A stretch of DNA of 64,000 nucleotides from NCBI GenBank assembly GCA_964016885.1, contig OZ024745.1, forward strand, positions 17,732,001 to 17,796,000. Reading direction: 5' to 3'. Shown here in pieces: positions 12,272 to 58,708 of this stretch. The notes beneath the pieces are model-generated. The model ran no database searches, had not been told where the DNA came from, and saw only the letters and a list, made by a program, of their open reading frames with translations. This DNA is from Eledone cirrhosa (Eukaryota). The first letter of the stretch is position 1; each line of letters begins with the position of its first letter. A program made the translations under genes and the position numbers.

Positions 12272-12815
12272 AGGAGGACATGATATGAAGGCTAAAAAAC
12301 ACTTGTGGATAGTGCAGTTTTAAATCAACATATGAGAAGTAGTTTTAGATTGATGTGTGATATTGGGAAAAATATTTTATTTAGAGAGGGGGGGTGGAAA
12401 GGATGAAAAAAAGGGGAGGACATGGGAGTGAAGGTGGAGAGGGAGAGATGGGTGATAGAGAGAAAGAGATAGTTTTTATAACTGAGAAAAGATATATTGT
12501 TTTACATAGAGAGGTTGAAAACCGTTGGAAGATAATGTATAAATTAAAAGAATTTGAAAATTGACGAAGGGAAAAATATGTACGAGGAAGGAGAGGGAGT
12601 TAATATGTATTGAGATTAAAAAGTTTGATGATAGAGAGAATAGAATAATGAATTGCAGATGAATATTCTAACGTCAAAAAAATGTGTGTATGTTTACAAG
12701 TATTATGGAAATTTGAAAATTAACGAAGAGAAAAAATGATTAAGGTTTGTGTATTGAAGGATTTGAGAAAAATAATGTGAAGTTAAGGTTTGTATATTGA
12801 AGGAATTGATAATAT

Positions 12816-14627
12816 GTGCGAAGAACTGAACTACCTGTTAGATTAATCGCCCCCTCTAAATCTGATCTGGGGGTTGTTAGTAAAGCCATCTTGGATAGAA
12901 TTATCCAACAGGTTCGTTCTAATTGCTCTTCTTTGAACCTAAATGTATGGTTTGGTACTTCTGAAGTGATTGGCTGGTTCAATAAATTGGATAATAAAAA
13001 CAAACTAAAATGTATTCAATTTGATTTTGCCAGCTACTATTCCTCCATTTCGCCTTCACTTCTCAATAATGCTCTATCTTTCGCACTTAAATATTCTGAC
13101 ATCACCACAGATGAACTTCACATCATCCTCACCGCACGTAAAACCATCCTAGAGTTCAACAACGAATATTGGACCAGAGCCGATACCTCTAACAACTTCG
13201 ACATCACAATGGGAGCATCCGATTCATCCCAATTGACTGATTTAATTGGTATCTTTATTTTGAACTCTTTGAGTCGGAAAATTCCTCAATTTCGCGGTGG
13301 AATTTATCGTGACGATGGACTCTATACTATCTTAAATTGCAATATAGTTAACCTCAATATTAAGAACAATATACGTAATCTCTTTAACCAACATAACCTA
13401 AAAATTGAATTTGATAACAGTATCAAACTAGCTAATTTCTTGGATGTATCTCTTAATCTTGACACTGGCCTATATTACCCTTACCATAAAAACAATGAGA
13501 ACCTAAATTATGTTAACTTTAAATCTAACCATCCTACCAATATCAAGAATGCTATAGTTAGTAATATTGGAAAAAGAATATCTAACATATCTTCTAATAA
13601 AAACATCTTTGATGCTAACGCCAATTACTATAATAACGCACTTTCTAAAGCCGGCTATCCTGATAAAATCAAATATAGTAAAGAAACAAATTCTAGAAAA
13701 ACTTACAGTAGAATAATTAATCATGATCATTCCAATAACTTTAATAAAAGACCTAGATACAAAAACATAATCTGATATAATGGTCCTTTCTCCATCTCTA
13801 TTAATAACAATATTCCTAAATTATTCTTTAGTGCTTTAAATAAATGCTTCCCTCCCTCACATATCTATAGTAAAATATTTAACAAACACACCATAAAATT
13901 TTCTTATTTTACATCCTCCAATATTTCCAACATTATCTCTAAACACAACAATAAAATACTAAATACTAAATCTCTTCCTTCCAACACTGAATTTCATAAT
14001 AACAGTAATAGTACTCCCGACGTCATTGTAAACCCTAGGCTAATTTCTGTAAACCCAAATACAACGTCAAACACAACTTCGCTAAATGTTCATAATCCAA
14101 CTCTAAATCAAGAAACTATTATTCCCATCGCAAACAACTTCTCCAATCCAATTCCTTCTATAGATAACACTAGGTCACTCATTAATAATCTCTCTAATTG
14201 CAACTGCCCTATTAAAAATAAATGTTCTCTCAACAACCATTGTCTTGATAAAAACTTAATTTATGAATGTAAAGTTATAACTAACACCAATTCCTTCACC
14301 TATTTTGGCTCCACTTCCACCTCTTTTAAAGCTCGTCTCTATAATCATCATTCATCTTTTAAATACAAACTTAAAAGAACCAACACGGCTCTCTCAGAAC
14401 TCATATGGTCCTTGAAAGACAAAAACATTACATATACTATCTTTTGGATGAAGGTTTCTTCTGCGTCTTCATACTTGAACAGCTCTCTATCTAAAATCTG
14501 TAATCTCTGCCTAAATGAAAAATTTACCATTATCTCTAATCTAGATTCTATAATAAATAGACAAACAGATTTGTTTTCTATCTGCTTGCATAAGTTCCAT
14601 AAGACATTTCACAAAGTATACAGCTAA
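12816..14627 (+). pseudogene. PLE reverse transcriptase + GIY-YIG endonuclease (one in-frame stop at 13773-13775)
   Basis: RLIAPSKS, FDITMGASDS, GIYRDDG, NFLDVSLNL, SNHP; after the TGA the same frame continues through CNCPIKNKC..C, LIYEC, YFGST, RLYNH, CNLCLNEK, CLH. Confidence 0.92.
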
Positions 14628-24017: not shown

Positions 24018-24145
<128 letters not shown>

Positions 24146-24165
24146 TTATTAAAATAACAGATTAA

Positions 24166-24216
24166 AGTTTAAGCAAAGAATCGCTGCTTTCACCCTTAAC
24201 GGGATCTTCTGTAACT
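24166..24216 (-). ncRNA. Family C hammerhead ribozyme (CAGAAGA core)
   Basis: Reverse complement AGTTA-CAGAAGA-TCCC/GTTAA/GGGT-GAAA-GCA..TGC-TT-AAACT. Confidence 0.65.
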
Positions 24217-24310
24217 CAAATAAATATTTGCTCTACGGTTCTTATATATTTGATATATATTTTTCCTTATCGAGCCCTCTTTGGATTTTAGTCTTCAAAT
24301 TTATTATTAT

Positions 24311-24362
<52 letters not shown>

Positions 24363-24964: not shown

Positions 24965-25044
24965 CTCCAACTAATTAGTTTCTGCAATGGGATAAAGACA
25001 GTTACGTAATGAACTGTTGAGAATTTCATTGCGTCATCAGGGAG
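24965..25044 (-). ncRNA. Family A hammerhead ribozyme
   Basis: Reverse complement of the 25610-25689 motif. Confidence 0.8.
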
Positions 25045-25609: not shown

Positions 25610-25689
25610 CTCCCTGATGACGCAATGAAATTCTCAACAGTTCATTACGTAACTGTCTTTATCCCATTGCAGAAACTAATTAGTTGGAG
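25610..25689 (+). ncRNA. Family A hammerhead ribozyme (type I, large loop II)
   Basis: CTCC-CTGATGA-C-GCAATG..(37 nt)..CATTGC-A-GAAA-CTAATTAG-TT-GGAG. Confidence 0.82.
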
Positions 25690-26161
25690 TGAAAGTTTAA
25701 GTAAGTAAGTTAATTGTTTTTTTATTTTTTTTTTTTATTTTCTTATTTTACGTCTTTTATATTATTGTTCTGCATCCTCCTGCATTGAACCACCTAGGTA
25801 CTATGACATAACCTGTGTATTTGCTGGCATTAGCGTACATCTGTGCGCTTATGTTAGTAGATATTTTAAATTATCTATATTTATCTCCAAATCACTGATT
25901 TGTCGAGCAAACCTGCCAAAACCACTTCTAAATTTTTTGGGGGTGTTAGTAGGCGTCTGTCATCTTACCATCCCATTCCTACTGACTAGCCTCTGTGTCA
26001 CGTGATTGATTCTTTAGAATCGGCCATATGACCAGTGGCAGTGAGAATTTTCAGTGCCTGGAACCCAGTCCTCGATAGCTGTACCATTTACCGAATTATT
26101 ATTATTTTAATATGAGTCCCCAGTGTCCGCGCATTGCCTGGAGACTTGGCTAAGAATAGAT

Positions 26162-26241
26162 CTCCCTGATGACGCAATGAAATTCTCAACAGTTCATTAC
26201 GTAACTGTCTTTATCCCATTGCAGAAACTAATTAGTTGGAG
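26162..26241 (+). ncRNA. Family A hammerhead ribozyme
   Basis: Same motif, 552 bp downstream. Confidence 0.82.
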
Positions 26242-26709
26242 TGAAAGTTTAAGTAAGTTAATTTTTTTTTTATTTTTTTTTTAAATTTTCTTATTTTACG
26301 TCTTTTATATTATTGTTCTGCAACCTCCTGCATTGAACCACCTAGGTACTATGACATAACCTGTGTATTTGCTGGCATTAGCGTACATCTGTGCGCTTAT
26401 GTTAGTAGATATATTAAATTATCTATATTTATCTCCAAATCACTGACTTGTCGAGCAAACCTGCCAAAACCACTTCTAAATTGTTTGGGGGTGTTAGTAG
26501 GCGTCTGTCATCTTACCATCCCATTCCTACTGACTAGCCTCTGTGTCACGTGATTGATTCTTTAGAATCGGCCATATGACCAGTGGCAGTGAGAATTTTC
26601 AGTGCCTGGAACCCAGTCCTCGATAGCTGTTCCATTTACCGAATTATTATTATTTTTATATGAGTCCCCAGTGTCTGCGCATTGCCTGGAGACTTGGCTG
26701 AGAATAGAT

Positions 26710-26789
26710 CTCCCTGATGACGCAATGAAATTCTCAACAGTTCATTACGTAACTGTCTTTATCCCATTGCAGAAACTAATTAGTTGGAG
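26710..26789 (+). ncRNA. Family A hammerhead ribozyme
   Basis: Same motif, 548 bp downstream. Confidence 0.82.
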
Positions 26790-26996
26790 TGAAAATTTAA
26801 GTAAGTAAGTTATTTTTTTTTTTATTTTTTTTTTAAATTTTCTTATTTTACGTCTTTTATATTATTGTTCTGCATCCTCCTGCATTGAACCACCTAGGTA
26901 CTATGACATAACCTGTGTATTTGCTGGCATTAGCGTACATATGTGCGCTTATGTTAGTAGATATATTAAATTATCTATATATATATATATATATAT

Positions 26997-27034
<38 letters not shown>

Positions 27035-27036
<2 letters not shown>

Positions 27037-28010
27037 TTATTAAAATAACAGATTAAAGTTTAAGCAAAGAATCGCTGCTTTCACCCTTAACGGGATCTTC
27101 TGAAACTAACAAAGTCAATCCGTAAACGCAGAACTGGATATTTCAAAAAACGTTGCAACCGGAGGAAGACAGGAAGACGATACTTTGGTTCGTGGTAACG
27201 TTCGCTGGCAAAGAACGGGTAAAAATGAATAATACGTCATTAATAAGAGCGGTGAAAAACAATTACGCGCAAAGACAAAACCACGTTTATGGTATAAAAG
27301 AGTTCTTAGACTAATGTTCTCTTAAGTGGTACATAGAGACGTTCTCTGGCAATGAACGAAAAAACGACGATAATAAGTCATATTTGGAACGTGGAGAACA
27401 ATAGCACGCAAAGACAAAACCACGTAAATGGTATAGCAGAAATCGTAGAGTAAAATTCTAACTAGGAGACCAAATGAATCTCCGCTACAGAGTTAAGAAC
27501 AAAGTAAATAAATACAATACAGAAGTAATAGAAACAAATAAATACATACACGCAAACAGATACGTACATACACAAGCATACGCAAAACCTTACCATGGGT
27601 ATACAAAACCACGCACATATAAATATGTGTGTGTGTGTATGCTTGTGTACAATTAAATAAATAATTATATAAACGTATATAAGTAAATAAATACGTATAT
27701 AACAAGCGCACACGCATACCTACATATAAATACACGAATGTTCGGAGACGTAAGTCAACTAAAACAAGAAGTACACATATACACACACCCACCATACGTA
27801 CGAACCTGCACACTGACGCGGACGCAAAACTCCCGTATACACATAACCAAACCCTAAATACCAGGATATGTAAAAATTATACGCTATAACAGTCAAATAT
27901 ACGTACGAGAAGGTATACATACCTTCACAAAACATACAGGTAATATATACTTACCTATGCAAATAAGTAAAGGAATAAACAAAACATATACTTAGCTCCC
28001 ACATCAAGAC
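27035..28010 (-). mobile_element. Family C HHR element, longest copy in the window
   Basis: Shared terminus ATTTATTAAAATAACAGATTAAAG at (TA)n; homologous to 22045-22830; right boundary approximate. Confidence 0.75.
27057..27107 (-). ncRNA. Family C hammerhead ribozyme (CAGAAGA core)
   Basis: Reverse complement AGTTT-CAGAAGA-T-CCC/GTTAA/GGG-T-GAAA-GCA/GCGATTCTT/TGC-TT-AAACT; all three stems pair. Confidence 0.72.
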
Positions 28011-28156
28011 GTAAAATATCCACGTATAGATCGTGCTATCCGTTAGGGTATAACGTGGGGCTGTAATACAGGAAAGTTTTGTGCAATTTATGTTTACAAG
28101 CCGAAATTGCCTCAGATTTTTTGTTTAAGATGTGGTCTGTAGCGTAGAGTATATGT

Positions 28157-29030
28157 GGTTTTCATTCTTTCTAACATCGGATTCACTAGCGAAAGGTCTG
28201 TTTTCTGACTCGCTCATATATTCACACAGCTTATGCTGAAAGAATAACTATGTTGCTTGTGTTTATTTCCATCTTCGGTTAGCTTCCCCCCTGTGTTGTT
28301 TACTTGTCTCACTCGCTTTACGCGTTTCTATTGTCCTAATAACTTATTTTAGTTATTATCGCTCCAACGTGAGGTATATGATTTTTAATGCGATGAAATA
28401 CCCATGATCGTTTGGTATATCACTGATGAGGGACTCATTTTATAACATGTTATCCATGTGAAACCACCAGTTTTCTTCTCACCCATATTTTCATATATTT
28501 ACCCAAACTGCAATTCTCTGTTTCTCTCTTTCTCTCTTACTGCTCCCTCGTTCTCTCTGTTTCTCTTACTTTCTTTCGTCCCCTCTGCCATGTCAGTTAA
28601 CTCTTTCTCTCTACTGACCTCTTCCTCGCACTCCCACTCACTCAGTCCCTGTTTCTCCCCTTCTTTCTTCCTCCCGTTCGCTGGGAAAACGGTTTTCATT
28701 CTTTCTAACACCGGATTCACTAGCGAAAGGTCTGTTTTCTGACTCTCTCATATATTCACACAGCTTATGCTGAAAGAATAACTATGTTGCTTGTGTTTAT
28801 TTCCATCTTCGGTTAGCTTCCCCCTGTGTTGTTTACTTGTCTCACTCGCTTTACGCATTTCTATTGTCCTAATAACTTATTTTAGTTATTATCGCTCCAA
28901 CGTGAGGTATATGATGTTTAATGCGATGAAATACCCATGATCGTTTGGTAAATCACTGATGAGGGACTCATTTTATAACATGTTACCCATGTGCAGCCAG
29001 CAGTTTTCTTCTCACCCATATTTTCATATA
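28157..29030 (+). repeat. Partial tandem duplication, 534-bp period (~1.6 units), ending in (TA)n
   Basis: GGTTTTCATTCTTTCTAACA..GGATTCACTAGCG at 28157 and 28691. Confidence 0.85.
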
Positions 29031-35605: not shown

Positions 35606-36195
35606 TGTTTCTACTTTTGGCACAAGGCCAGCAATTATTCCAGTGTATTACTGGCTTTTTATTTTATCGACCCCGTAGGGGTGAAAAGCAAACTTAACCT
35701 CGGCGGGAATTGAACTCAGAATGGCAAGGGCCGTAACTCTATGCGTCAAAGCATGGCGTCTGACCCTCTACCGATACTGCAAATCCACCGCTGATAATAA
35801 TAATAATTGTTTCTACTTTTGGCACAAGGCCAGCAATTATCCCAGTGTATTACTGGTACTTTATTTTATCGACCCCGTAAAGATGAAAGGCAAAGTTAAC
35901 CTCGGCGGGATTTGAACTCAGAATGGAAAGGGCCGTAACTCTATGCGTCAAAGCATGGCGTCTGACCCTCTACCGATACTGCAAATCCACCGCTGATAAT
36001 AATAATAATTGTTTCTACTTTTGGCACAAGGCCAGCAATTATCCCAGTGTATTACTGGTACTTTATTTTATCGACCCCGTAAGGATGAAAGGCAAAGTTA
36101 ACCTCGGCGGGATTTGAAATCAGAATGGAAAGGGCCGTAACTCTATGCGTCAAAGCATGGCGTCTGACCCTCTACCGATACTGCCATCCACCGCC
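35606..36195 (-). mobile_element. Head-to-tail trimer of OK-like SINE (202-bp period)
   Basis: Three consecutive copies; a single TATCATTAA duplication flanks the whole array (35596-35604 and 36196-36204). Confidence 0.9.
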
Positions 36196-37129
36196 TATCA
36201 TTAATGTACGTATTTTCTCTCGAAATACGTAGGATTATACTTAAATCTGTCAATAGCTAAAATATGGCGTTATATTTGCTGTGCATTTGTTACATATAAT
36301 CAATCAAATGTAGACAAAACAATATATTGTTGGCGCCCATTCTTATACTGAAATATATTACGTATAAAATTTGAAGTACTTTGACATTTCACTATTATTT
36401 TAAATTCAATATTTCATTCAATTCAAATTCAGGTTATTCATGAAAACAGATGACATTATAACAGAGTTGTGCATCATTCGGCCAAAATAAAGAAATATAC
36501 ACACTACTAGAAGCATATATGACAATAAATGTTCATACGCCAATTATAGACGAATTTTAATATTTCCAATTACGATGTCATATTTGTATAGGGATGTTGT
36601 TAGTTTAAGGAGATATTTTGTTTAGATATGTACTTCCATTATTTTAAAATATATATGTATATATATAATAACTAGAAATTGATTAACATATAAATAAACA
36701 TGAATAATCACAGATAGCTAGGTAGGTAACTAAATAAAGTTAACCAGAACTTCAAAAATAGATACCTTATAATATGATTATTCTTCCCTGTATATATTCC
36801 ATTAAAGAAATATATTTCACCAATTAATCAAATGGTAAACCATGGAGGCCGGTACTTGGATTTTCAACAAGGAAGAAGTTCAGCGATCTATGTTTACACT
36901 TCAAGTTCAAATCAGCGACTGGCCAGCAACACGTGCTGTATCTACTAGAAATACACACATTATACCAGCTTCGTCACATGTTTATTCATGTTTATTTATA
37001 TGTTTATCAATTTCTAGTTATTATAAAATGCTCGGACCTATTCGTTAGAATCTTAGAGCTTATTTTGCGGGTGATATTGCGCATGTCTTTCTGGCATGGC
37101 ACCCATAACTTTGATTAACTTAATTTTGG

Positions 37130-37665
<536 letters not shown>

Positions 37666-38753: not shown

Positions 38754-38975
38754 ATTAGTATTGGTGCTATAAAATAGCGATGTATACATAAATGTATGTT
38801 TAATATACAGTATTTGTCAATATAGCGTATGTTTAATTAAAAATATTTAGAAGACCATTCACTATCATTTTAAAAGTAGTGACTATGTCACTTACTTATA
38901 TTTTCTGCAAAGGCTGGGAGAGTGGGTGACAGCTGTTTCTCGCTACTTGGCGTTTATCAAAGCCACGCACTCACC

Positions 38976-38978
<3 letters not shown>
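38754..38978 (-). mobile_element. Diverged family B relative with degenerate HHR
   Basis: Start resembles 2831 and 57661; minus strand GTGGCT-TTGATAA-..CGC..GCG..-GAAA-CAGCTG-TC-ACCCAC; flanked by (TA)n. Confidence 0.6.
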
Positions 38979-39036
<58 letters not shown>

Positions 39037-39262: not shown

Positions 39263-39267
<5 letters not shown>

Positions 39268-39812
39268 TATGTATACAGACGTACAGTAGTATGTATATAT
39301 ATATATATACATACATGCACACATATATATATATATGTACGCATGGATTCACCGTACATTTATTATAATGCTCGGTGTGTTTGTAAACAAACATCCCGTA
39401 TTAAGCCGTAGTGTCTAGCAACCAGCGTTACTCATTTGTTTAACATTGACAAAGGAACACTGTACTAGTTTCAACCTTATTAGATATCGTCAGCAACGTA
39501 TACCTTCCTGCCAGATGATTGAACGTCTGAAAGTATATACTTTCCTTATGCATATTAACGGCTGAGCAGCCCAATTTGCATATCGAGTGAGTTAATCAGC
39601 CGGGTACCGAAAACGATAAACGGAAAAGATGAAACGAAATTTCATTTCTCACTCTTACTACGCCTGTTACTTAAATATAAGTATGTATACGTACATACAT
39701 ATATGTATACAGACGTACAGTAGTATGTATATATATATACACATCAAGCATTATAATAAATGTTCGGTGAATCCATACGTACATATATATATGTGTGCAT
39801 GTATGTATGTAT
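39263..39812 (-). mobile_element. Family D HHR element (~434-bp unit, ~1.1 units) with short inverted arm
   Basis: GTATACAGACGTACAGTAGT at 39271 and 39705; ~39748-39812 is the inverse of ~39305-39370; homologous to 49280-49630 and 41325-41435. Confidence 0.75.
39457..39499 (-). ncRNA. Family D minimal hammerhead ribozyme
   Basis: Reverse complement ACGTTG-CTGACGA-T-ATCT/AATA/AGGT-T-GAAA-CTAG-TA-CAGTGT; all stems pair with G-U allowed. Confidence 0.8.
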
Positions 39813-40448
39813 AGAAAAAAGTATGACGCCGAAATAGAGTTGGAAATAGGAAAAAGTATGACCCCAGAAATAGCCGTTGAAACGGCTTGAGCTCTGCCTT
39901 CGGGTCATACTTTTTCCTATTTATATATATATACATTTATATTTGTTTTCTTCTTTAACATGGTGAAACATATTTTCTGAAAGATAGAATAGAACCCAAC
40001 GAATACATATAAAGTACCTTTTTCCCTTTGCATTGTTCTGGATATATTCTATGGATCATATCTATGTTTTTTTATGAGCGTATGTAAAGATATAAAAACA
40101 ATAAACTACTCAGAAGATATGTGTTTTGTTATATGTTTTACTTAGTTTCTCTATATATTCGCATAGATTTTTTTTCCCGAGATATAGAAATTTACTTCCA
40201 TTATAGACGTTTAAGATATAAAGAAAAAAAAAGGATACGTTGTTAAGGTCACTTGCACTTTCCATTTTGTGTCCTTTTTTATTTTCCGAATATTTCCACC
40301 CACTAGAAAGATGTAAATGTGGCTTAATATATAAATATATAACTGTGTAGGGAGGACACATATGTGTGTGTTTGTGTGTATGCACAGACATACACACATA
40401 TATATATATATATTTATGCATATGTGTGTGTATGCACACGCACACACG

Positions 40449-40630: not shown

Positions 40631-40898
40631 CAATATTAAATAAATGGAAAACTATATTTATAAAACCATATTTATTTCATTATATATATTTCGGGGATAT
40701 CATATTAACAATATGCTATGCTATATTGTTAATATGATATCCCCGAAATATATATAATGAAATAAATATGGTTTTATAAATATAGTTTTCCATTTATTTA
40801 ATATTGTAAATATACTCCAAGTATTTGTCGAGTGCTTTTATATCAGTTATAAATATTTACTAGTTGTAACCCAACAATTTTAAATATAACTTTACATG
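40631..40898. mobile_element. Ultra-short fold-back insertion of the second Naiad element's pLTR
   Basis: ~40721-40898 matches the reverse complement of 53486-53660; 40631-40720 is its inverted copy; (TA)n on both sides. Confidence 0.88.
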
Positions 40899-43160: not shown

Positions 43161-44300
43161 TCTATTGAAAGTAATAATAAAAAAAACAATTATGTTAGAA
43201 ATAAGAAAGTGTGTTGAGGAAAGTAATATAAACAAAACATAAACTTATAGAGTAATAAATACACAACTAGAATTATCTAGGTTATTAAATGAATCCTTTT
43301 CGTGAATTCTATCAGTAAATGATGAATCTAAATTGATTTTATTTCGGTTGCTGACACGCTAAAGGTTAAATATGGTGTTAATGTAAATTCATTTGTTTAT
43401 TTCTTTTGAAAATATCGACAGGAAATAATTACGATTTAAGTCTCCGCTTTATCAATGTTGAATTAATTTTCAATTCTTTCCAATGAAATTACTTCTAGTA
43501 AATTATTCAAATATTATCTCTGTTGTCAGACACTTTGGTCCGTATCTCAAATGCGAATCAACAGAATTCTTAAGCCTTTTATAATAACAAAGTCTGAATT
43601 ATCCATTAATATGATTTTCTTTATACAGATTACAATCTTGATGAAAACAATGATAAATCTGTTTATGGATATTAAATGAAGGTATAGTAAATATGTCCCA
43701 ACAACTGTTTATGATAAAATTAGTCGTTGATTACTATCAAAATTATTCGTCTGCATTGGAATATCCGCCATGAAATTGAGAATATGTGGTTTTGCTAAGT
43801 TGAAATGATATATGTTTGATGGAGACATACAATTACAACCATTAATTGAGCCAAAACGTTTAAACTTGGATACTCAACCTGTTGGAAAGATTTTCTGAAA
43901 GAATCGCCGAAATAATTATACAATCAATCTAATTCAATTTATAATACTTACACATATAATTGCCAGGAATGTGTGCAGAATACTCTTACTGTCAATGTCA
44001 TCTACATCTCAATCTATCAGCACCTTATAAAACCTGATTTTATATATCACGGTAAATCGACAGTTAGATATTATTATATGAATTTATGGATACCGATACT
44101 GCCAATTCACTGCCCTTTATGGATATAAAGAATTGTTTCTACTTTAGGCACAAGGCCAGCAATTAACCAGTGCATTACTGGTACTTTATTTTATATACCA
44201 AAACTCATATACATACATAAATACACAATCACACAGACACACACACGCATATATATTTACATATATATATATATATATATATAGTTTTAATATAGATGAG

Positions 44301-44347
44301 ATTCTACAGGACTAGAACTGTTTCATTCATTAGAAATCATCAGGAAT
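44301..44347 (-). ncRNA. Type I hammerhead ribozyme at the end of a probable PLE 3' remnant (~44283-44830)
   Basis: Reverse complement ATTC-CTGATGA-T-TTC/TAAT/GAA-T-GAAA-CAG/TTCTAGTC/CTG-TA-GAAT; ~20 bp from (TA)n. Confidence 0.8.
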
Positions 44348-44859
44348 ATGGGTATCAAAAAATAAATATGGTATTTATAGGTCTCTACAAGTGGTAGGAG
44401 AGGGTGGGGAGTGGGATGGGTGCAGGTCATTGGTTGATAGAAAAGGGAATTCATTAAAAGCTAATTCTACAAAGCTATAGTTTATTTTTATTTATTTATG
44501 TTTTTAGAGTAACAAGGGTGGACAGAATTCTATAAACAGGTTCCGGATGGCATACCATTCCTTGTCATTAAGTTTCTCTTAAGCTAACAGATGTCTATAA
44601 AATCAGTGGGGGGTCAGTCATGGTCGATAGAATTAAAGAAAAGGGAGATTCTTTAAAAGCTAAAATCATTAAGGTTCTACTAAGTGACAAAGGTCTAGAG
44701 AATTCTGCAGACAGATTCAAAATACTGAGTGCATATCTTACTATTATCTTCGAACTTCTCTTAAACTAATCAACTATATGCCAAAAATCAACAGACACAT
44801 TCACAAAAAAACAAAAAAACACATACTCACTCACACACTTACGCGCAACCATAAACACA

Positions 44860-45526
<667 letters not shown>

Positions 45527-46551: not shown

Positions 46552-46859
46552 GAGACATCAATTTCTCCTTTCCTTCGAAGTGAATACGATGAAGTGCCAT
46601 TCGCTCGATTATAAATTCTCTAAAACTACTTACCACTCCCATTCTTCTGAAGAGAATTTAATTGATCCAATAAATCAGTTGTCAATGACAGTTATATATA
46701 TCAAGCTTCTACTTACTTCATGAATAGACTCTATGAACTTCCAAATATATAATTCACATCAGGGATTGTTAGTATTGTAACAGATATATTTACGGATGTC
46801 ACGTTAATACATCGCATACTACAGGCACAATGCATAATTCTAAATTACGTATAACAAAG

Positions 46860-48662
46860 AAACTGGGTGTCGGCGTGTCCGGTGGCTGTGAGGGAGCCTC
46901 TCATGCAATCAGGCAGTTCTTCAGCAGCTGCCCATCAGTACCGGTATCCAGGGACTCCAGGCACCTGATTGTCAAGCTTGACATGAGGAATGCCTTTAGC
47001 TCTTTACGTCGGGATCATCTGCTCGAGGCCTGCCTCAACCGAGCCCCCTCTTCCTACCCGCTGGCCTACCTGTCATATGGAGCCCCGAGCATGCTCTTAG
47101 CTGCTGATACGGTCATACAGGGCGACCCTTTGGTACCCCTCCTGTTCGCTCTTGGTATTGACCACATCGCCCGGAGTATCACGGCCCCTCTCAACGTTTG
47201 ATATCTGGATGATGCTACGTTGGGCGGGCCCTTACGGACGGTCTGCCAAGACCTTCAATCGGTGATTCCTGCCATGGCGGGAATCGGCCTCCACGTCAAC
47301 TCGGCCAAGTCGGAGGTGGTGAACGTCAGCCTCGATGCAGTGAGCTTTGCAGCACCCGTCTTGGACGCGCGGTCCATTCTCCGCCAGGTTCAGGTGACCC
47401 GCAAAGAGGATGTCCACATCCTCGGGTCACCGATCCACCCGCCGGCCATCCGCTCCACCATCAGGTCCAGGCTTGAACAGCTGCAGACTCTCACGAGCCG
47501 ACTGGGCTTGATTGACGGCCACCCAGCTCTCTTTCTGCTGAGGAACTGCTTCGCCATGCCGAAGCCCCTCTATACACTCCGCAGCGCTCCATGCTACACC
47601 CAGACATCTCTCCTCGCTGACCTCGATACTTGTATCCGAGCAGCAGCCGAGGGGATATGCAACGACAAGTTTAACGATATAGGGTGGCAACAGGCCACTT
47701 TACCGGTCAGGTATGGCGGCCTAGGCCTCCGGTCCCCGATCTCACTAGCTTTGCCGGCGTATCTTTCGTCGGTAACCTCGTTCCGCATCCTCGTCAGCAG
47801 GGTTCTTCAAAACACAACAGAACCCTCTGTGTTCAGAGAACGTGAAGCCGCCTGTGAGACGTGGTACCGGCTGGGACTTGGCCCATTAGACGTCCCTCAT
47901 CCTTCTCCCTATGTTGACGTCAAGTCCCACCAACGCACTTGGGATGACCTCCAGTGCAGCCTGGCCTCAGGCAGGCTCACGCGCCAGTTCGACCAGCACC
48001 GCCTTGCTTGCTTTCGTGCGGCCTCCAAACCCCACAGTAGTGCCTGGCTCCATGCTCTGCCCACCTTCTCCACTGGTACGCAGTTAGACAACCATAGCCT
48101 GCGAATCGGCGTTTCCCTGAGGCTCGGCCTTCGGATCTGCCAGCCACACCAATGTCGCTGCGGTTCCACCGTGGACTCTTTCGGCATCCACACGCTTTCC
48201 TGTCGACACAGTGCCGGCCGCATTCCACGCCATACTGCCCTCTACGATGTCATTAAGCATGGCTTGGACGCTGCAGGCTTCCCTTCCCTGCTCGAGCCGG
48301 TGGGGCTTTATCGAGGGGATGGCAAAAGACCAGATGGCATGACCATCTTCCCGTTCCGCGGTGGAAATCCCCTCGTCTGGGATGCCACTTGCACCGAACT
48401 TTCTGCAGCCGCAACCTGGTGCAGTCTGCGACTGACACAGTTTCTGCTGCACATCGGGCTGAGGGGGCCAAACTCTTCAAATACCGGTCGCTCTCCGACA
48501 GGTTTGCGGTCGTTCCCCTGGCAGTGGAAACTTCTGTTGTCCTCGGCCCAGGGCTACCTCCTTACTCACCACTATAGGCGCTGAGCTTTTCCAGCGCGTC
48601 TCCCTTGCCGTCTTCCGGGGAAACGCCTTCTCCATTCTGTCCGCCGGTGCAGTGGATGGGCC
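46860..48662 (+). mobile_element. CRE-like non-LTR retrotransposon fragment (RT + restriction-like endonuclease), decayed
   Basis: LGVGVSGGCE, KLDMRNAF, QGDPLVPLLF, (W>stop)YLDD, LPVRYGGLGLR, CRC..H..SC zinc knuckle, RH, KRPDG, WDAT; sharp GC-rich block. Confidence 0.9.
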
Positions 48663-49033
48663 CAATTGCGTACCATTACATTAGTTAAATACCATTCTTT
48701 CATCCCAGTAGAGTTCATCAAACATGTTTGTGGGTCTACGACTTCTTTTATACCATAAACGTGGTTTTGTCTTTGCGTGTAATTGTTTTTAAGATACAAT
48801 TGTGGTATACATAAATTAACCCATTTTCATACTCCCGAATATCATATATTGTTAGAGAGCAATAACACGTATTGGGAATATCACAACATTAGTTTATATT
48901 GACTCATTTCTGATGGAATTTTCTACCTGCGTGTTCGATTCATCATATTGTCATTGATAGAGTGACCAGGAATTCCTACATGTACTGATTAAAGATTATC
49001 GAGTTCCTAATCCCCCAAATTTTATATATATAT

Positions 49034-49116: not shown

Positions 49117-49187
49117 CGTGTGTGTACGTGTGTGTGTATAATCATATGCAAGATAATATGTATATATTATATATATATATAGAAATA

Positions 49188-49908
49188 TATTTATTAAAAT
49201 AACAGATTAAAGTTTAAGCAAAGAATTGCTGCTTTCACTCTTAACGTGATCTTCTGAAACTCAGTTTCGTACTAAGTAAGTGCCGTCATAAGAGTGAGAA
49301 ATGAAATTTCGTTTCATTCTATTCCATTTATTGTTTTCGGTGTGCCCGGCCGACTGAACTCACTCGATATGCAAATTAGGCTGCTCAGCCGTTAATATGC
49401 ATAAGGAAAGTATATACTTTCAGACGTTCAACCATCTGGCAGGACGGCATACGATGCTGGCGATAGCTCATAAGCTTGAAACTAGTACATCGTTCCTGTG
49501 TCAGTGTTGAACAAAAAGGTGACGTGGTTGCCTAAACACTGTACGGCGTCATTCGGGCTGTTTGTTTGTTTACATATACGTTCATACATATATATATGCA
49601 GGTATCGGTTTACCGAACATTTATTATAAAGCTCGGTTTGTTTGTTTACAAAAAAACAAACCGGTGACGTGGTTTATTTGTTTACAAAAAAAAACAAACC
49701 GGTGACGTGGTTTATTTTTTTACAAAAAAATAAAAAGGTGACGTGGTTGCCTAAACACTGTACGGCGTAATTCGGGCTGTTTGTTTGTTTACATATATGT
49801 TCATACATATATATATGCACGTATCGGTTTACAAAAAAACGGCTAGTTCTGGTCTCCAGAAATAGCCGTCGAAACGGCTTGACCTCTGCTGTCGGGGTCA
49901 TACTTTTT

Positions 49909-49911
<3 letters not shown>
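49188..49911. mobile_element. Chimeric insertion: family C end (minus) joined to family D body (plus)
   Basis: 49188-49261 matches 27035-27107; 49280-49630 is the inverse of 39340-39665; local duplications at 49630-49830; (TA)-rich on both sides. Confidence 0.75.
49451..49493 (+). ncRNA. Family D hammerhead ribozyme (core CTGGCGA, one substitution)
   Basis: ACGATG-CTGGCGA-T-AGCT/CATA/AGCT-T-GAAA-CTAG-TA-CATCGT; stem I perfect. Confidence 0.72.
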
Positions 49912-49986
<75 letters not shown>

Positions 49987-50609: not shown

Positions 50610-50692
<83 letters not shown>

Positions 50693-50694
50693 TA

Positions 50695-52409
50695 TATAGA
50701 TAATTTAATATATCAACTAACATAAGCGCACAGATGCACGCCCATGCCAGCAAATACACAGGTTATGTCATAGTACCTAGGTGGTTCAATGCAGGAGAAT
50801 GCAGAACAATAATATAAAGGACGTAAAATAAAAAAAAATATTTTTTTAAAAAAAATTTTAAAAAAATTTTTTTCTTACTTAAATTTTCACTCCAACTAAT
50901 TAGTTTCTGCAATGGGATAAAGACAGTTACGTAATTCAACTGTCGAGAATTCATTGCGTCATCAGGAAGTCTATTCTCAGTTAAGTCTCCAGGCAATGCG
51001 CGGACACTGGCGGCTCATATAAAAATAATAATAATTCGGTAGATCGAACAGCTTGCGAGGACTGAATTCTATGTACCGAAATTCTCACTGCTTCAAGTCA
51101 AATGGCCGATTCTAAAGAATCAATCACGTGACACAGAGGCTAGTTAGAAGGAATTACGTAACTGTCTTTATCCCATTGCAGAAACTAATTAGTTGGAGTG
51201 AAAATTTAAGTAAGAAAAAAATTTTTTTTAAATTTTTTTTAAAAAAATATTTTTTTTTTATTTTACGTCCTTTATATTATTGTTCTGCATTCTCCTGCAT
51301 TGAACCACCTAGGTACTATGACATAACCTGTGTATTTGCTGGCATGGGCGTGCATCTGTGCGCTTATGTTAGTTGATATATTAAATTATCTATATTTATC
51401 TCCAAATCACTGATTTGTCGAGCAAACTTGTCAGAACCACTTCTAAAAAAATTTTTTTTTTGGGGTGTTAGTAGGCGTCAGTCATCTTACCATCCCATTC
51501 CTTCTAACTAGCCTCTGTGTCACGTGATTGATTCTTTAGAATCGGCCATTTGACTTGAAGCAGTGAGAATTTCGGTACATAGAATTCAGTCCTCGCAAGC
51601 TGTTCGATCTACCGAATTATTATTATTTTTATATGAGCCGCCAGTGTCCGCGCATTGCCTGGAGACTTAACTGAGAATAGACTTCCTGATGACGCAATGA
51701 ATTCTCGACAGTTGAATTACGTAACTGTCTTTATCCCATTGCAGAAACTAATTAGTTGGAGTGAAAATTTAAGTAAGAAAAAAATTTTTTTTAAATTTTT
51801 TTTAAAAAAATATTTTTTTTTTTATTTTACGTCCTTTATATTATTGTTCTGCATTCTCCTGCATTGAACCACCTAGGTACTATGACATAACCTGTGTATT
51901 TGCTGGCATGGGCGTGCATCTGTGCGCTTATGTTAGTTGATATATTAAATTATCTATATTTATCTCCAAATCACTGATTTGTCGAGCAAACTTGTCAGAA
52001 CCACTTCTAAAAAAATTTTTTTTTTTTTTGGGGTGTTAGTAGGCGTCAGTCATCTTACCATCCCATTCCTTCTAACTAGCCTCTGTGTCACGTGATTGAT
52101 TCTTTAGAATCGGCCATTTGACTTGAAGCAGTGAGAATTTCGGTACATAGAATTCAGTCCTCGCAAGCTGTTCGATCTACCGAATTATTATTATTTTTAT
52201 ATGAGCCGCCAGTGTCCGCGCATTGCCTGGAGACTTAACTGAGAATAGACTTCCTGATGACGCAATGAATTCTCGACAGTTGAATTACGTAACTGTCTTT
52301 ATCCCATTGCAGAAACTAATTAGTTGGAGTGAAAATTTAAGTAAGAAAAAAATTTTTTTTAAATTTTTTTTAAAAAAATATTTTTTTTTTTTATTTTACG
52401 TCCTTTATA
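50695..52409. mobile_element. Family A retrozyme-like array, variant 2 (568-bp period; ~0.8 unit minus + ~2.2 units plus)
   Basis: HHRs at 50890-50969 (-), 51682-51761 (+), 52250-52329 (+); junction at 51151-51154 with GAAT microhomology; (TA)n flanks. Confidence 0.9.
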
Positions 52410-52436
52410 AATAAATATATATATATAATATATATA

Positions 52437-52480
<44 letters not shown>

Positions 52481-52483
<3 letters not shown>

Positions 52484-53438
52484 AATTAATATATCTACCG
52501 ACATATGTATACAGATGCATACCTACGCTAACAGATATATATGTTTTGTCTTAGTAACTTTGTAGTTCTATGACTTAATAGCAGCCCCAGTCCAAGCTGG
52601 TTAACCTCAGTGTCACGTGATTAATTCTTTTGAATTTGCCACTTGACCAAGGAGGCAGCGAATTGTTCAGTGCTTAGAATCTAGCCCCGCTCGATTTTTT
52701 CGATTTTTTCCATCCACTGAATTATTGTTATATAAGCTTCCAGTGTCCTCTCATTGCCTGGTGGCTTAGCTGAGAATAGACTCCCTGATGACGTAAGGCT
52801 TCTCTACAGGTATTACATAACTGCATTTATCCCCTTACAGAAATTAATTAGTTGGAGTGAAATTTTAGTAAGTAAGTCAATTTTCATAACTTTCTTATTT
52901 ACGTCTTTCATATAATTGTTCTGCATTCCCCTGCATAGAACTACAAAGTTACTAAGACAAAACATATATATCTGCTAGCGTAGGTATGCATCTGTATACA
53001 TATGTCGGTAGATATATTAATTCTTTATATACTACTCCAAATTATTTGTTGAGCAAAATTTGCCAAATTACTACTGTAAATGATAGTAGTAGCTAGCCTC
53101 TGTCTTAATAGCACCCCCACTCCAAGCTGGTTAACATCAGTGTCACGTGATTAATTCTTTTGAATTTACCACTTGACCAAGGAGGCAGCGAATTTTCAGT
53201 CAGTGCTTAGAATCTAGCCCCGCTCGATTTTTTCGCTTTTTTCCATCCACTGAATTATTGTTATATAAGCTTCCAGTGTCCTCTCATTGCCTGGTGGCTT
53301 AGCTGAGAATAGTCTCCCTGATGACGTAAGGCTTCTCTACAGGTATTACATAACTGTATTTATCCCCTTACAGAAACTAATTAGTTGGAGTCAAATTTTA
53401 GTAAGTAAGTCAATTTTCATAACTTTCTTATTTACGTC

Positions 53439-53443
<5 letters not shown>
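52481..53443. mobile_element. Family A retrozyme-like array, diverged variant 3 (533-bp period)
   Basis: Inverted arm 52481-52571, then ~1.6 plus-strand units; HHRs at 52781-52857 and 53314-53390. Confidence 0.88.
53314..53390 (+). ncRNA. Family A variant 3 hammerhead ribozyme
   Basis: CTCC-CTGATGA-C-GTAAGG..CCTTAC-A-GAAA-CTAATTAG-TT-GGAG. Confidence 0.83.
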
Positions 53444-53488
<45 letters not shown>

Positions 53489-53619
53489 GGAAAGTTATAT
53501 TTAAATTGTTGGGTTACAACTAGTAAATATTTATAACTGATATAAAAGCACTCGACAAGTATTTGGAGTATATTTACAATATTAAATAAATGGAAACTAT
53601 ATTTATAAAACCATATTTA

Positions 53620-53681
53620 TTTCATTATATATATTTCAGGGATATCATATTAACAATATGCTATGCCTTCCTCAGACAAAA
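53620..53681 (-). ncRNA. Hammerhead ribozyme in PLE pLTR
   Basis: Reverse complement TTTTGT-CTGAGGA-AGG..CATATT/GTT/AATATG..CCT-GAAA-TATATA-TA-ATGAAA. Confidence 0.78.
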
Positions 53682-55045
53682 TACAATATAAACAGTTTTA
53701 TAGATAAATAGATTTGACATACCGTAACAACATCGACTTGTATTTGAAAAGTTGAATTGGCAGTGAAAAAATTGTACACAGAGAGAAAGAAAGAGAGAAA
53801 AAAGGAAAGAAAGACAGAAAACGAAGAAAAAGAAGAAAAAAAGAAGAAATGCATGGAACAAAATAGAGAGATGGAAAGATAGATAAAGAGAAGAACTTCA
53901 TGTAAAGAAACAGAGAGATATATATATATATAGAGAGAGAGGAAATAGAGATAGATATATATATATAGAAAACTAGGTAGTGGGACGTCCGTTGAGTAAA
54001 CGTATCAATGATACATTTATTTATTTATTTATTTATTTAGCTCTAGTATTAATGTAAGGGAGATATATGTGGTTAGGAGAGAAACCAGCTGTTATATAGA
54101 GAGAAAAATTAAAAATTAAAAATAACCAGACATAGGCGAGGCATAAAAACCCTATGTTTTAATGTAGAGGTATTAGTATGTATAAAAACCAGCCACTATA
54201 TTGTAAATATCAGTATTCCTGAATGAGACATGTATCCATAATGTGTGAAAAGTAATGATCTTATGTTTAGTTTAAAAAAAAAAAAAAAAAATTCATATGT
54301 TTATGTGATAACTATAAACATCTATGTGAATTTACATGATCAACTCTGCAAACCCTAAGTTCACGGAAAACATTCTCATTGTGCTATAAATATTTAAGTA
54401 TACATATATGTGTATATATATACACACAAATATATATAGAGTCAATATTACTACTATTCCTGTCTTTACTCTACAAGATTATCTATCAAGCAGAAATAGA
54501 GAGCAGATTTCAATATACTAATAAAAATATATATCAGAAACAAAACCAAAAACAACAATAATAATAATAATAAGTAATAATAAAATAGAAAACTAAAAAA
54601 TATTACGAAAGAATATTACATATTAAAAATATTACATATTAAAAATATTAAAAATAAAAATATTAGAAAATACTACAATAATAAAAATAAACTACAAAGA
54701 TCAACCCTTCAAAATTAATTGACAATATATTGCCAAGTTCATTATAAGCATCAGAGTCGAAAAACAGATAAAGCTAAAAATTATTTATCAAATCGCATCT
54801 AGCAAAGATCATTTCAAAAAGTTTAGGATGCCCATTTGGTCTACATGTGTTCTTATATTTAATATAGAAGTTTATCTAGTGTAACGTTTATTCGAAATAT
54901 TTGGAGCATCAACTTTTAGGGTAGCTTAATTTTTCATGAAGAATGTTTAAATAAAAATAAAAATAAAAAATAAAAAAAATAAAAAGAAGAAATCGAAAGA
55001 TTTATCGGCTAGTTTCCCATATAATTATAAATCAAACTAAATATA

Positions 55046-56590
55046 CTACATTTTAAATTTAAATTTATATTTAAGCGTTGAGTTTAATCTATGTTTGCAG
55101 CAACTGAATAAATTTGTCCGTAGATTAAGGGAATTTTTAGATTTTAGTATAAAGAATATCTCCTCTGCGCAGAGGTCACATGTCTCAGAGGATGAATTAA
55201 AAGGAATCCCTCTTGACACTATATTCCAAGCCGTCGAATATCTAACGTTATCTAGCTTAAGTTGCCAGAGTACGCCTGATAGTGCCGTTGAAGATTTTTT
55301 GCTTGGATCTGTGAAAGAATTATTGTGGTTATTATAGCGAAGTTTAAATTCCGTCGATGTGGAACCGACGTAGTTAAAAGAATTAGAGTCAGTTTTAACA
55401 TTACAATTGTATACTATATTTTTAACTAAGCAGTTGTTATTTAACGGACATTTAGATCTATCTCTACAGTTACATTTGTTAACTTGTATATTATTTATGC
55501 TATTATCACTAGGTTTTAAGTTCCTATTATTTATTCTATTAATATTTTGTGCTAAATTTTTGGTGGATGAGTAGGTTAATTTTATAGTATGTCTATTGAA
55601 AATTGAGTGATACCTATGTGTTCTAGGGAAGCGATTATCAAGAGCTTTAAAAAATAGTTTAGCGATGTGGGTTTTAATGTTTAGTGAGAAAGGGGGGGAA
55701 AACCAAATTATGTTCCTAGTTCTATTTCTTTTTTGGCCTTTGGAATTATTGTAATGCTTTCTATTATAGTTGTTAAGGTTGTTGCCGTAATTAAAATAGT
55801 TGTTATTTTGTTTAGTTTGTCTATCATTATCTATGTACATAATGTTATCAGCATATCCTGCTCTAGCTAATGCTTCATTGTAGTATTGGGCTTTTTCGTC
55901 GAAAATCTTTCTATTCGACGAGATCCTAGAGATACGCTTTTGAACAGAGTTTCCTATAGTGTTTTTGACAGATCTGGGGTGGTTAGAATTAAAGTTGACA
56001 TAGTTTAAGTTTTCATTCAACTTGTGAAAAGGATAGTGAAGACATGTGTTGAGATTTAATGTTATATCTAGGAAATTGACTATTCTATGGTTGTTCTCAA
56101 TTTCTATTTTAAGATTAAAGTAATTAAAAAATTGTGTAATTTGTTTACATTTTCTATTTAGTTCAGAGTTATTATTATCAATAAGTAAAAGCATGTCATC
56201 TCTATATAAACCTCCGGTAGTACCAGGTATTTTCCTATGTAGCGAATTGATTAAATATAAGCCCACAAGGTCAGTTACCTGAGCTGAGTCGGATGATCCC
56301 ATAGTAATGTCAAAATTGCTATCTCTATCTGCTCTGGTCCATAGTAGGTCATTAAATTCTATCAAAGTTTTCCTAGCCGATAATATAATATGCATTTCAT
56401 TGCTAGTTAGGTCAGTATGTTTGAATGCGTAATTTAGTGCCTTATTTAGTAGATTAGGGGTAATAGAAGAATAATAGTTAGCAATATCAAGTTGAATAAA
56501 CTTATTATTATTGTTATATTTAATTTGCTTAAACCACTCAACAACCTCTCCAGTTCCCTTCCACAAGCTCAGGTTAGATAAACAATCCAA
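55046..56590 (-). CDS. PLE RT + GIY-YIG endonuclease, uninterrupted 514-aa frame lacking its N-terminus
   Basis: LDIANYY, FDITMGSSDSAQ, GLYRDD, NFLDITLNL, SNHP, IIWFSPPFS, CNCR..CPL..C, IVY..YVGST, RYNNH, CDLCAEE, CKHR. Confidence 0.9.
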   Translation of the reverse strand: MDCLSNLSLWKGTGEVVEWFKQIKYNNNNKFIQLDIANYYSSITPNLLNKALNYAFKHTDLTSNEMHIILSARKTLIEFNDLLWTRADRDSNFDITMGSSDSAQVTDLVGLYLINSLHRKIPGTTGGLYRDDMLLLIDNNNSELNRKCKQITQFFNYFNLKIEIENNHRIVNFLDITLNLNTCLHYPFHKLNENLNYVNFNSNHPRSVKNTIGNSVQKRISRISSNRKIFDEKAQYYNEALARAGYADNIMYIDNDRQTKQNNNYFNYGNNLNNYNRKHYNNSKGQKRNRTRNIIWFSPPFSLNIKTHIAKLFFKALDNRFPRTHRYHSIFNRHTIKLTYSSTKNLAQNINRINNRNLKPSDNSINNIQVNKCNCRDRSKCPLNNNCLVKNIVYNCNVKTDSNSFNYVGSTSTEFKLRYNNHNNSFTDPSKKSSTALSGVLWQLKLDNVRYSTAWNIVSRGIPFNSSSETCDLCAEEIFFILKSKNSLNLRTNLFSCCKHRLNSTLKYKFKFKM

Positions 56591-56645
56591 GTTCTTAATT
56601 TGCGGTATGTCAAATCTATTTATCTATAAAACTGTTTATATTGTA

Positions 56646-56707
56646 TTTTGTCTGAGGAAGGCATAGCATATTGTTAATATGATATCCCTGAAATATATAT
56701 AATGAAA
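56646..56707 (+). ncRNA. Hammerhead ribozyme in inverted pLTR copy
   Basis: Same motif as 53620-53681 on the opposite strand. Confidence 0.78.
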
Positions 56708-56746
56708 CAAATATGGTTTTATAAATATAGTTTCCATTTATTTAAT

Positions 56747-56790
<44 letters not shown>

Positions 56791-57137: not shown

Positions 57138-58190
57138 ATTTTTTATCTTTTACGCTCTTTCCTACGTTCTTCTACACACTATACATCTCATTCTATATTC
57201 ACTTACATATCTCTCTTCACCACCGGATCTTGTTACCCGGAGAATTACCCATCTGCCTTGTTGAGGCTTCCAAAACGACCTAAAGAAAATATATCTTATT
57301 ATCCAACAATGCTTCAAGCAAACTTCCATACTCATTTATATATATATATATATAGAAATTGGAATAAATGCTCTGAAATAGCGATATATATGTGAATATA
57401 GACATAGAATATTCGAAAATATTCTGTATGTTTATAATAAACATTTTGAAGACCTAATCGCTATAGAATAGAATACGTCACGTATTATAATTAGATTCTC
57501 GATAAAAGCAAGGGAAGTAATCTACGCGTTTCATTCTTATTAGAAATCTTCAGGACCACATATCCAGTGCTTTTATCGAGAATGACACAGCTAGAGACTT
57601 ATAGAATACTTAGCTGTGTACAGGAACTGGTTTGAAAGAGCGGTTGCCGGTCCGGCAGAAATTAGAAATTGGAATAAATGCTCTGAAATAGCGATATATA
57701 TGTGAATATAGACATAGAATATTCGAAAATATTCTGTATGTTTATAATAAACATTTTGAAGACCTAATCGCTATAGAATAGAATACGTCACGTATTACAA
57801 TTAGATTCTCGATAAAAGCAAGGGAAGTAATCTACGCGTTTCATTCTTATTAGAAATCTTCAGGACCACATATCCAGTGCTTTTATCGAGAATGACACAA
57901 TAAGAATGAAACGCGTAGATTACTTCCCTTGCTTTTATCGAGAATCTAATTGTAATACGTGACGTATTCTATTCTATAGCGATTAGGTCTTCAAAATGTT
58001 TATTATAAACATACAGAATATTTTCGAATATTCTATGTCTATATTCACATATATATCGCTATTTCAGAGCATTTATTCCAATTTCTAATTTCTGCCGGAC
58101 CGGCAACCGCTCTTTCAAACCAGTTCCTGTACACAGCTAAGTATTCTATAAGTCTCTAGCTGTGTCATTCTCGATAAAAGCACTGGATAT

Positions 58191-58233
58191 GTGGTCCTGA
58201 AGATTTCTAATAAGAATGAAACGCGTAGATTAC
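58191..58233 (+). ncRNA. Family B minimal type I hammerhead ribozyme
   Basis: GTGGTC-CTGAAGA-T-TTCT/AATA/AGAA-T-GAAA-CGCG-TA-GATTAC; enclosed by the 16-bp helix ATTCTCGATAAAAGCA/TGCTTTTATCGAGAAT. Confidence 0.88.
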
Positions 58234-58500
58234 TTCCCTTGCTTTTATCGAGAATCTAATTGTAATACGTGACGTATTCTATTCTATAGCGATTAGGTCT
58301 TCAAAATGTTTATTATAAACATACAGAATATTTTCGAATATTCTATGTCTATATTCACATATATATCGCTATTTCAGAGCATTTATTCCAATTTCTAATT
58401 TCTGCCGGACCGGCAACCGCTCTTTCAAACCAGTTCCTGTACACAGCTAAGTATTCTATAAGTCTCTAGCTGTGTCATTCTCGATAAAAGCACTGGATAT

Positions 58501-58543
58501 GTGGTCCTGAAGATTTCTAATAAGAATGAAACGCGTAGATTAC
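58501..58543 (+). ncRNA. Family B minimal type I hammerhead ribozyme
   Basis: Identical motif 310 bp downstream. Confidence 0.88.
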
Positions 58544-58665
58544 TTCCCTTGCTTTTATCGAGAATCTAATTGTAATACGTGACGTATTCTATTCTATAGC
58601 GATTAGGTCTTCAAAATGTTTATTATAAACATACAGAATATTTTCGAATATTCTATGTCTATATT

Positions 58666-58708
<43 letters not shown>

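Follow-up and report, generated by a model that had tools for sequence, protein, structure and literature searches.

A composite of three high-copy repeat families between TA-rich tracts in Eledone cirrhosa, possibly built up stepwise

The window, a 64-kb (64,000-nt) stretch of Eledone cirrhosa DNA, is AT-rich animal DNA with 91 merged (TA)n tracts and repeats that resemble those of octopods. Positions 49188-49911 are occupied by a composite made of scraps of three distinct high-copy non-coding repeat families, here called C, D and E, in at least six segments. The composite is bounded by two TA-rich tracts onto which the 3′ ends of C and E face outward, C adjoining TA at 49188 and E at 49910; on the left, this TA sequence is short and has interruptions, and the (TA)n flanks would hide a target-site duplication. 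The composite locus contains no ORF of at least 110 aa. Its features, with those of its borders, are as follows.

49160..49187, TA-rich flank on the 3′ side of the C arm, short and interrupted, read from the sequence with approximate boundaries
49188..49261, minus strand, 74-bp 3′ arm of family C, the inner end of which is the first base of hammerhead stem I
49211..49261, minus strand, type I hammerhead-like motif of family C, with core CAGAAGA (A at core position 4) and a 5-bp stem I
49262..49272, 11-nt junction filler between C and D
49273..49571, plus strand, body of family D, 5′ truncated relative to the family
49451..49493, plus strand, type I hammerhead-like motif of family D, with the core at 49457-49463 and core A6 changed to G here
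49572..49652, minus strand, inverted D segment in a locus-specific order, matching D39 at 58/70 positions
49653..49728, locus-specific duplications of D-derived pieces of 36-38 bp
49729..49832, plus strand, repeat of 49510-49613 that spans the D inversion point, the core of which is identical at 98/101 positions
49839..49854, minus strand, the E 5′ end copied in inverted form over 15 nt, with a 1-nt centre at 49854
49855..49910, plus strand, 56 bp of family E, the true right-hand end of the composite
49911..49978, (TA)34 tract

The preliminary description of this DNA had presented the locus as a fold-back with arms from two families, the left arm being the minus-strand 3′ end of family C, halting at its hammerhead, and the right arm being family D on the plus strand, joined to C without (TA)n. 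The left arm was borne out at 49188-49261, as was the direct join, where (TA)n is absent and only the 11-nt filler separates C from D. The assignment to D holds for 49273-49567, which includes a hammerhead-like motif; beyond it the sequence is inverted and duplicated, and the end belongs to family E. The composite is not a two-arm fold-back, as neither end is an inverted copy of the other. Self-derived inverted sequence at the 5′ ends amounts only to stubs of 6 nt for C and 15 nt for E, and the long partner is another family.

Among public data, seven runs share part of the stretch, none of them as much as half, the best containing 39% of the sampled words; no RNA run shares it. Four runs were aligned at 85% likeness, namely, two contig sets of one sample and two RAD read sets, and depth in the RAD sets is library biased. 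C, D and E are all high copy in these reads. Depth fell from approximately 5,000 reads at 49247 to 12 and 7 reads at 49262, and contig depth fell to 0.3-0.5%. This drop, which leaves 0.1-0.5% of the 49247 depth at 49262, rules out both an amplified C-D chimeric family and a subfamily of C carrying one more C at 49262. Among the records listed for the four runs, no contig or read bridged the C-D join, and depth was near zero at 49686-49710, within the unique part of the composite. The loose ends at positions 49308-49309, together with the read ends at 49305 and at 49374-49377, lie on AATT and were treated as artefacts of a reduced-representation library, the enzyme of which presumably cuts at AATT. 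The composite's copies differ from the read majority at 3/74 sites (C), at least 15/295 sites (D) and 2/56 sites (E), divergences that are compatible with one age within wide intervals. Exact-pattern scans returned nothing for family C in metagenome, viral or genome contigs, nothing for E in metagenome contigs and nothing for D in genome or viral contigs.

Family C has five copies in the window, and the copy at 49188-49261 (C49) matches the other four at 89-96%. The hammerhead-like motif of the family has the stems, GAAA and CUU, and its core position 4 is A in every one of the five copies; stem II is weakened in C49, and the C22 copy additionally lacks C3. The A at core position 4 (minus strand; 27062-27102, 24211, 49256, 22116 and 6909) may be a natural variant, and the motif is a candidate ribozyme. 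A hammerhead descriptor gave 12 matches with a score of 10 or more in the window and none in five shuffles. The C49 motif scored 9, a score at which shuffles averaged 0.4 matches, and was accepted because it is homologous to the C27 motif, which scored 10. Rfam reported no hammerhead at the gathering threshold (0 matches in the whole window), none among the 38 rows obtained for the composite stretch at E-values of up to 10, and none among the best 150 of 195 matches in the E-value scans, which gave only hairpin and microsatellite chance matches. Minimum free energy folds of C arms were no better than those of shuffles (z = 0.31, −0.28 for C49, and 0.04). Neither a tandem arrangement of C over approximately 700 bp nor a complete C/C fold-back among the five window copies was found.

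A hammerhead is a frequent inner end in the window, where the arm end lies −5 to +31 nt from the core in 8/19 arms and 6/12 loci, in a count for which the arms were chosen by the analyst and paired arms are not independent. Because the hammerhead is a favoured inner end, the inner end of C probably reflects an RT stop and not a randomly placed deletion break, and such a stop would fit stepwise and single-event origins of the composite alike. Separately, a 57-bp piece at 48734-48790, 230 bp to the left of the TA tract that flanks the composite, matches an internal C segment at 87-93% in the opposite orientation.

Families D and E also lie side by side at a second place in the window.

39265..39812, same-family two-arm D locus, taken as reference, with a long minus arm and an intact hammerhead core at 39493
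39813..39917, second locus of family E, beside D, with short minus pieces and a 54-bp plus arm

The D body at 49273-49567 (D49) is 86% identical to 39385-39673. The hammerhead core of the family is canonical in the 39493 copy, which has the type I layout (CUGANGA, GAAA, NUH and stems I-III), and 99% of reads carry the canonical A at 49460. The D49 motif gave a minimum free energy fold with z = −1.98. D39 consists of one unit of approximately 424 nt with terminal redundancy and one hammerhead motif, and no D copy with two hammerheads was found in the window. Upstream of 49273, D in the reads runs on into one TA-rich sequence (25,902 and 22,689 reads, with 97-98% agreement), and D49 is therefore truncated at that point; it also lacks an inverted partner arm of its own on the left. 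Moreover, the internal order of D49 is locus specific because reads link 49515 instead to 49652, on opposite strands (2689 and 2924 reads). A read joint from 49824 to 49273 was disregarded; one side is 22 nt long, and the match is probably due to low complexity.

The E segment at 49855-49910 matches 39864-39917 at 91%, and no hammerhead was found in the family. Its upstream side is heterogeneous in the public data (128 contigs, agreement of 0.42), which rules out E as the usual 3′ end of D. Contigs aligned across the E hairpin centre at 49854 numbered 67 and 70, or 2.7-3.1% of E depth. E and C were joined tail to tail through (TA)4 in 112 reads from 3 start sites, in 92 reads from 2 start sites and in 1 contig. 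As E and C are thus tail-to-tail neighbours at other loci, we conclude that pile-up of these families occurs. E could represent either a short retro-arm whose 5′ end is fixed or the end of a MITE. In a comparison with TA-target MITEs, 39845-39921 is an imperfect palindrome flanked by TA, 49839-49910 lacks an outer left end, and no transposase was linked to family E. Both E copies in the window (39813-39917 and 49839-49910) adjoin family D sequence.

The filler between C and D is ordered. It consists of one C followed by a 6-nt inverted copy of the C end (49263-49268), the background chance of which is 0.0014 within 0-3 nt. The last letters of the filler and the first four bases of D form a 9-mer that matches the family-D majority 16 nt downstream; for this match, the chance of a given 5-mer is 0.0004 per position, before allowing for many acceptable matches. 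The 9-mer recurs at 41390 and is carried by 98% of reads at 49287-49288, and it is absent from D49 itself, which has two changed bases at the matching position. Because the filler shows the majority state of D, the join would have formed while D was young or with D RNA or cDNA at hand. Each broken end thus has matching sequence in the filler. Such templated sequence is a typical product of synthesis-dependent end joining, an established pathway of the polymerase-theta type. The inner ends of C and E are built alike, each with a 1-nt centre and a short inverted self-copy (6 nt and 15 nt, respectively).

Other family C copies bear on how such joins arise, and three further features are relevant here.

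24145..24216, minus strand, second arm of family C, ending on the nucleotide at which C49 ends
24217..24313, 97 bp of DNA after the second C arm, beginning with a 14-nt palindrome and ending at (TA)22
27035..29026, candidate two-family join, a long C minus arm and then a T-rich plus-strand segment, with no (TA)n between

The preliminary description had offered 24145-24313 as a second case of C joined to an unrelated sequence. The shared C end held, whereas the 97-bp partner yielded no convincing match to the rest of the window (one AT-rich match, 66% identity, E = 0.002) and no hammerhead motif, and its standing as a second family is not supported. That the partner ends near (TA)n is weak evidence, because a random point has a 6-10% chance of lying within 100 bp upstream of (TA)10 or longer and a 28-45% chance of lying within 650 bp. 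The 14-nt palindrome of this second junction (24217) lies on the partner side. At 27035-29026, the plus-strand segment contains a partial tandem of 534 bp, in which a CTGATGA core lies at 28424 and again at 28958, and the boundary near 28035 was placed from strand composition only. All four TA-anchored C copies (22051, 24145, 27035 and 49188) lack TA at the inner junction, and none of the four has a C plus arm reaching a TA tract; the 13 hand-picked loci of other families are two armed. One TA-anchored C copy has a 168-nt inverted stub (22662-22829). Three minor observations concern such junctions: a C copy at 22051-23247 is joined to foreign sequence without TA; at 24217 and at 49262, each short C arm is followed by a C that is absent from the family at that position; and the E hairpin centres hold C or G, which, with the extra C of the C arms, could speculatively be an untemplated or cap-copied base.

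Same-family loci indicate how many templates an insertion generally uses. Thirteen same-family two-arm loci were chosen from a self-comparison of the window. For the loci having a second locus to compare (n = 7), arms were 95-100% alike within a locus and 72-97% alike between loci, and the within-locus value was always the higher (7/7). Families B (552-564 bp) and H (310 bp) have a tandem structure, and monomers across both arms differ at only one column in locus B50 and at one in H57. In locus B24, two shared non-homopolymer variants occur in matching monomers of the left and right arms, in register, and no variant is specific to one arm, two further shared columns in a T/A run having been set aside. 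The lack of arm-specific variants in the three tandem loci is weak evidence, as conversion between arms could mimic it. Because arms are matched within loci, we conclude that one template per event is the rule. Free capture of two RNAs is not the usual route, since matched arms would be rare if each strand drew freely on many families and variants.

One arm runs 37-123 nt further at its 3′ end in 9/13 two-arm loci (for example, 53486-56750, 40631-40898, 24358-26975 and 50690-52409). The offset is family specific, being 91 and 92 nt in one family and 118 and 123 nt in another, and it is longer than the 30-40-bp tail described for Penelope elements. The one-sided extension otherwise matches the one-sided tail and two RT start sites treated in the available text of PMC8557442 and PMC11167929. 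Two loci, 57355-58668 and 50690-52409, are very young tandem fold-backs, as expected from rolling copying of one RNA circle. At 38756-38981 and 44284-44909, left arms related to family H (with a hammerhead motif at 44343, minus strand) are followed by unrelated right-hand sequence, making these candidate mixed or solo loci.

A candidate for the machinery that moves these families is present in the window.

55046..56623, minus strand, Penelope-like ORF (RT/GIY-YIG) within an inverted-arm insertion flanked by (TA)n, candidate driver type
12813..14627, plus strand, second Penelope-like ORF, interrupted and 50% identical to the first

Both ORFs lie inside inverted-arm insertions with (TA)n flanks. 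They are of the C-terminal-endonuclease type and were identified by motifs and by Atlas feature neighbours at 0.95-0.98, several of which carry GIY-YIG, RVT_1 or HTH_animal members; Pfam missed both ORFs, and a PDB search gave 0 matches. The earlier suggestion that the families share one RT machinery is plausible in that all families insert 3′ end first in (TA)n both Penelope-like ORFs have the same flanks and a Penelope protein acts on both target strands in vitro (PMC11167929). Families C, D and E match neither of the window's two Penelope-like elements and have no terminus in common with them; under a shared Penelope-type machinery, they would presumably be mobilised in trans.

Related systems are known. 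In the accessible parts of PMC8557442, PMC3846280 and PMC11167929, EN+ Penelope units have, as here, 3′ ends at AT-rich or (TA)n sequence, a hammerhead near the 3′ end, head-to-head inverted 5′-truncated arms, a tail on one arm, 5′ palindromes and microhomology 5′ joins. They differ in that published inverted copies are of the same element, whereas here different non-coding families are joined, and in that each family relies on its own terminal structures in the portions of Arkhipova 2013 (PMC3846280) at hand, whereas here families are mixed. For Penelope of Adineta, the same source reads 5′ palindromes as self-priming and describes microhomology 5′ joins without target duplication, as well as microhomology deletions. 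Metazoan non-LTR retrozymes, proposed in available text to be Penelope derivatives (PMC7229834; 10.64898/2026.07.22.740005), are likewise non-coding type I hammerhead repeats proposed to be moved by Penelope-like elements, and the terminally redundant D unit and the tandem families B and H resemble them; they differ from the families here in that D copies in the window never have two hammerheads, C lacks a tandem arrangement and E yielded no hammerhead. No report of two-family head-to-head Penelope or retrozyme joins was found in the literature searched, mostly open-access main texts. The words "inverted," "microsatellite" and "target site" do not occur in the main text of PMC7229834, and "hammerhead" and "chimer" are absent from the available part of a 2026 octopus repeat annotation (PMC13282606).

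At a probability of about 0.5, we favour an origin of the composite by stepwise pile-up of single-arm Penelope-type insertions in a TA hotspot, sealed by end joining. The following series is our inference as to which enzyme drives insertion, how it primes, where the RT stops, how the ends are repaired and in what order the steps occurred. A Penelope-like endonuclease/RT would nick (TA)n and prime on a non-autonomous RNA. On C RNA, the RT would halt at the hammerhead, and the cDNA end would briefly fold back. Synthesis-dependent end joining of the polymerase-theta type would then seal the C cDNA to a neighbouring D copy, with loss of the remaining TA and of the TA-rich 5′ part of D. E would have arrived likewise on the other side. 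Stepwise pile-up is favoured because the composite holds three families in at least six segments, the order within D is locus specific and E has no fixed upstream partner. The reading also rests on the likeness of arms within loci (7/7) and on the tail-to-tail E and C neighbours, as well as on hammerhead inner ends, the TA-rich sequence upstream of 49273 and the 5′ joins of Adineta, as far as PMC3846280 is available. Against it stand the one-armed state of all four TA-anchored C copies, a filler equal to the D majority, the similar divergences of C, D and E, the lack of a left partner arm for D49 and the fact that no intermediate allele was seen.

Several of those same points favour a single event that used two RNAs, a tentative alternative that we place behind stepwise pile-up. 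Here a Penelope dimer would have primed both ends of one cut (TA)n, or two tracts close together whose intervening DNA was lost; C would have been copied on the left and D, or E and then D by template jumps, on the right, the cDNA ends joined and D rearranged later. Consistent with such an event, the Penelope protein PAc cleaves and extends both target strands in vitro and is a predicted dimer, according to the available text of PMC11167929. Moreover, the C end is a likely RT-type stop common to two copies, none of the four TA-anchored C copies has inner TA or a full partner arm of its own, and 27035-29026 is a second likely two-family join. The filler equals the majority sequence of D, and C, D and E have similar divergences. 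In tumours, head-to-head 5′-truncated L1 pairs from synchronous events have been reported (10.1101/2024.08.27.596794, in the parts available). The L1 cases share two primed target ends, 5′-truncated head-to-head pieces and sometimes two RNAs with the arrangement here; L1 twin priming differs in using one RNA and leaving non-overlapping arms (same source), and the two-RNA L1 cases are tied to chromosomal rearrangements and were established by comparing alleles, whereas here the sequence of one allele stands alone. Against a single event, same-family arms carry the same variant in 7/7 loci, which independent draws would rarely produce, and the TA-anchored right end is E, not D. The 104-bp duplication includes a locus-specific inversion, and thus extra steps are needed anyway, and the partner at 24217-24313 has no convincing window match or hammerhead. 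The proposal in the preliminary description that two templates were used in one event thus gains some support from the C-copy pattern and the filler, and it is opposed by the presence of three families in at least six segments and by the one-template habit of same-family loci. How Penelope-like elements produce their inverted insertions, and whether one RNA or two are used, is itself stated to be open in the accessible text of PMC8557442 and PMC11167929.

A stronger form of the two-RNA idea, in which a Penelope dimer regularly primes both (TA)n ends on different RNAs and C is a one-armed passenger completed by the arm of another family, seems to us rather unlikely. If it were true, two-family head-to-head insertions would be a regular product. 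Such joins would naturally mark a two-template route, and the link between retrozyme-like RNAs and Penelope enzymes would then be mechanistic rather than a matter of co-occurrence. Under stepwise pile-up, the composite is an ordinary pile-up scar, and a single locus cannot decide between one template and two.

It is improbable that complete C/C, D/D and E/E fold-backs once lay adjacent and that later deletions left the 6-nt and 15-nt stubs. Palindrome breakage usually removes the centre, and both hairpin centres are retained. At least two independent deletions would also be needed, and none of the five C copies is part of a complete C/C fold-back. In favour of deletion, contigs do cross the E hairpin centre (at the 2.7-3.1% of E depth given above), runs of adjacent insertions fill 24145-29026 and 50690-56750, and microhomology deletions are reported for Penelope copies in the available text of PMC3846280. 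Finally, an assembly artefact between repeat copies would agree with the lack of a join-bridging record among those listed for the four runs, the essentially uncovered positions 49686-49710 and the 39% of sampled words in the best run, but it is very improbable, as the filler is ordered, templated and part of neither family consensus, a second C copy stops at the same base, and the runs may come from other individuals or related species, such that a coverage hole proves nothing.

Other repeats in the window were recorded alongside these families. Two decayed non-LTR retrotransposons lie at 46773-48660 and 3100-6640, one of the APE/RT type (RVT_1 match) and one with a C-terminus whose motif is of the restriction-like endonuclease type. 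A 202-bp unit at 35602-36194, tandemly repeated 2.9 times, has at least eight relatives dispersed through the window and resembles a SINE. At 37316-37630, three repeats of a 35-bp unit are set between (TA)n/(TG)n tracts, and the unit also occurs in inverted form at 36628-36657.
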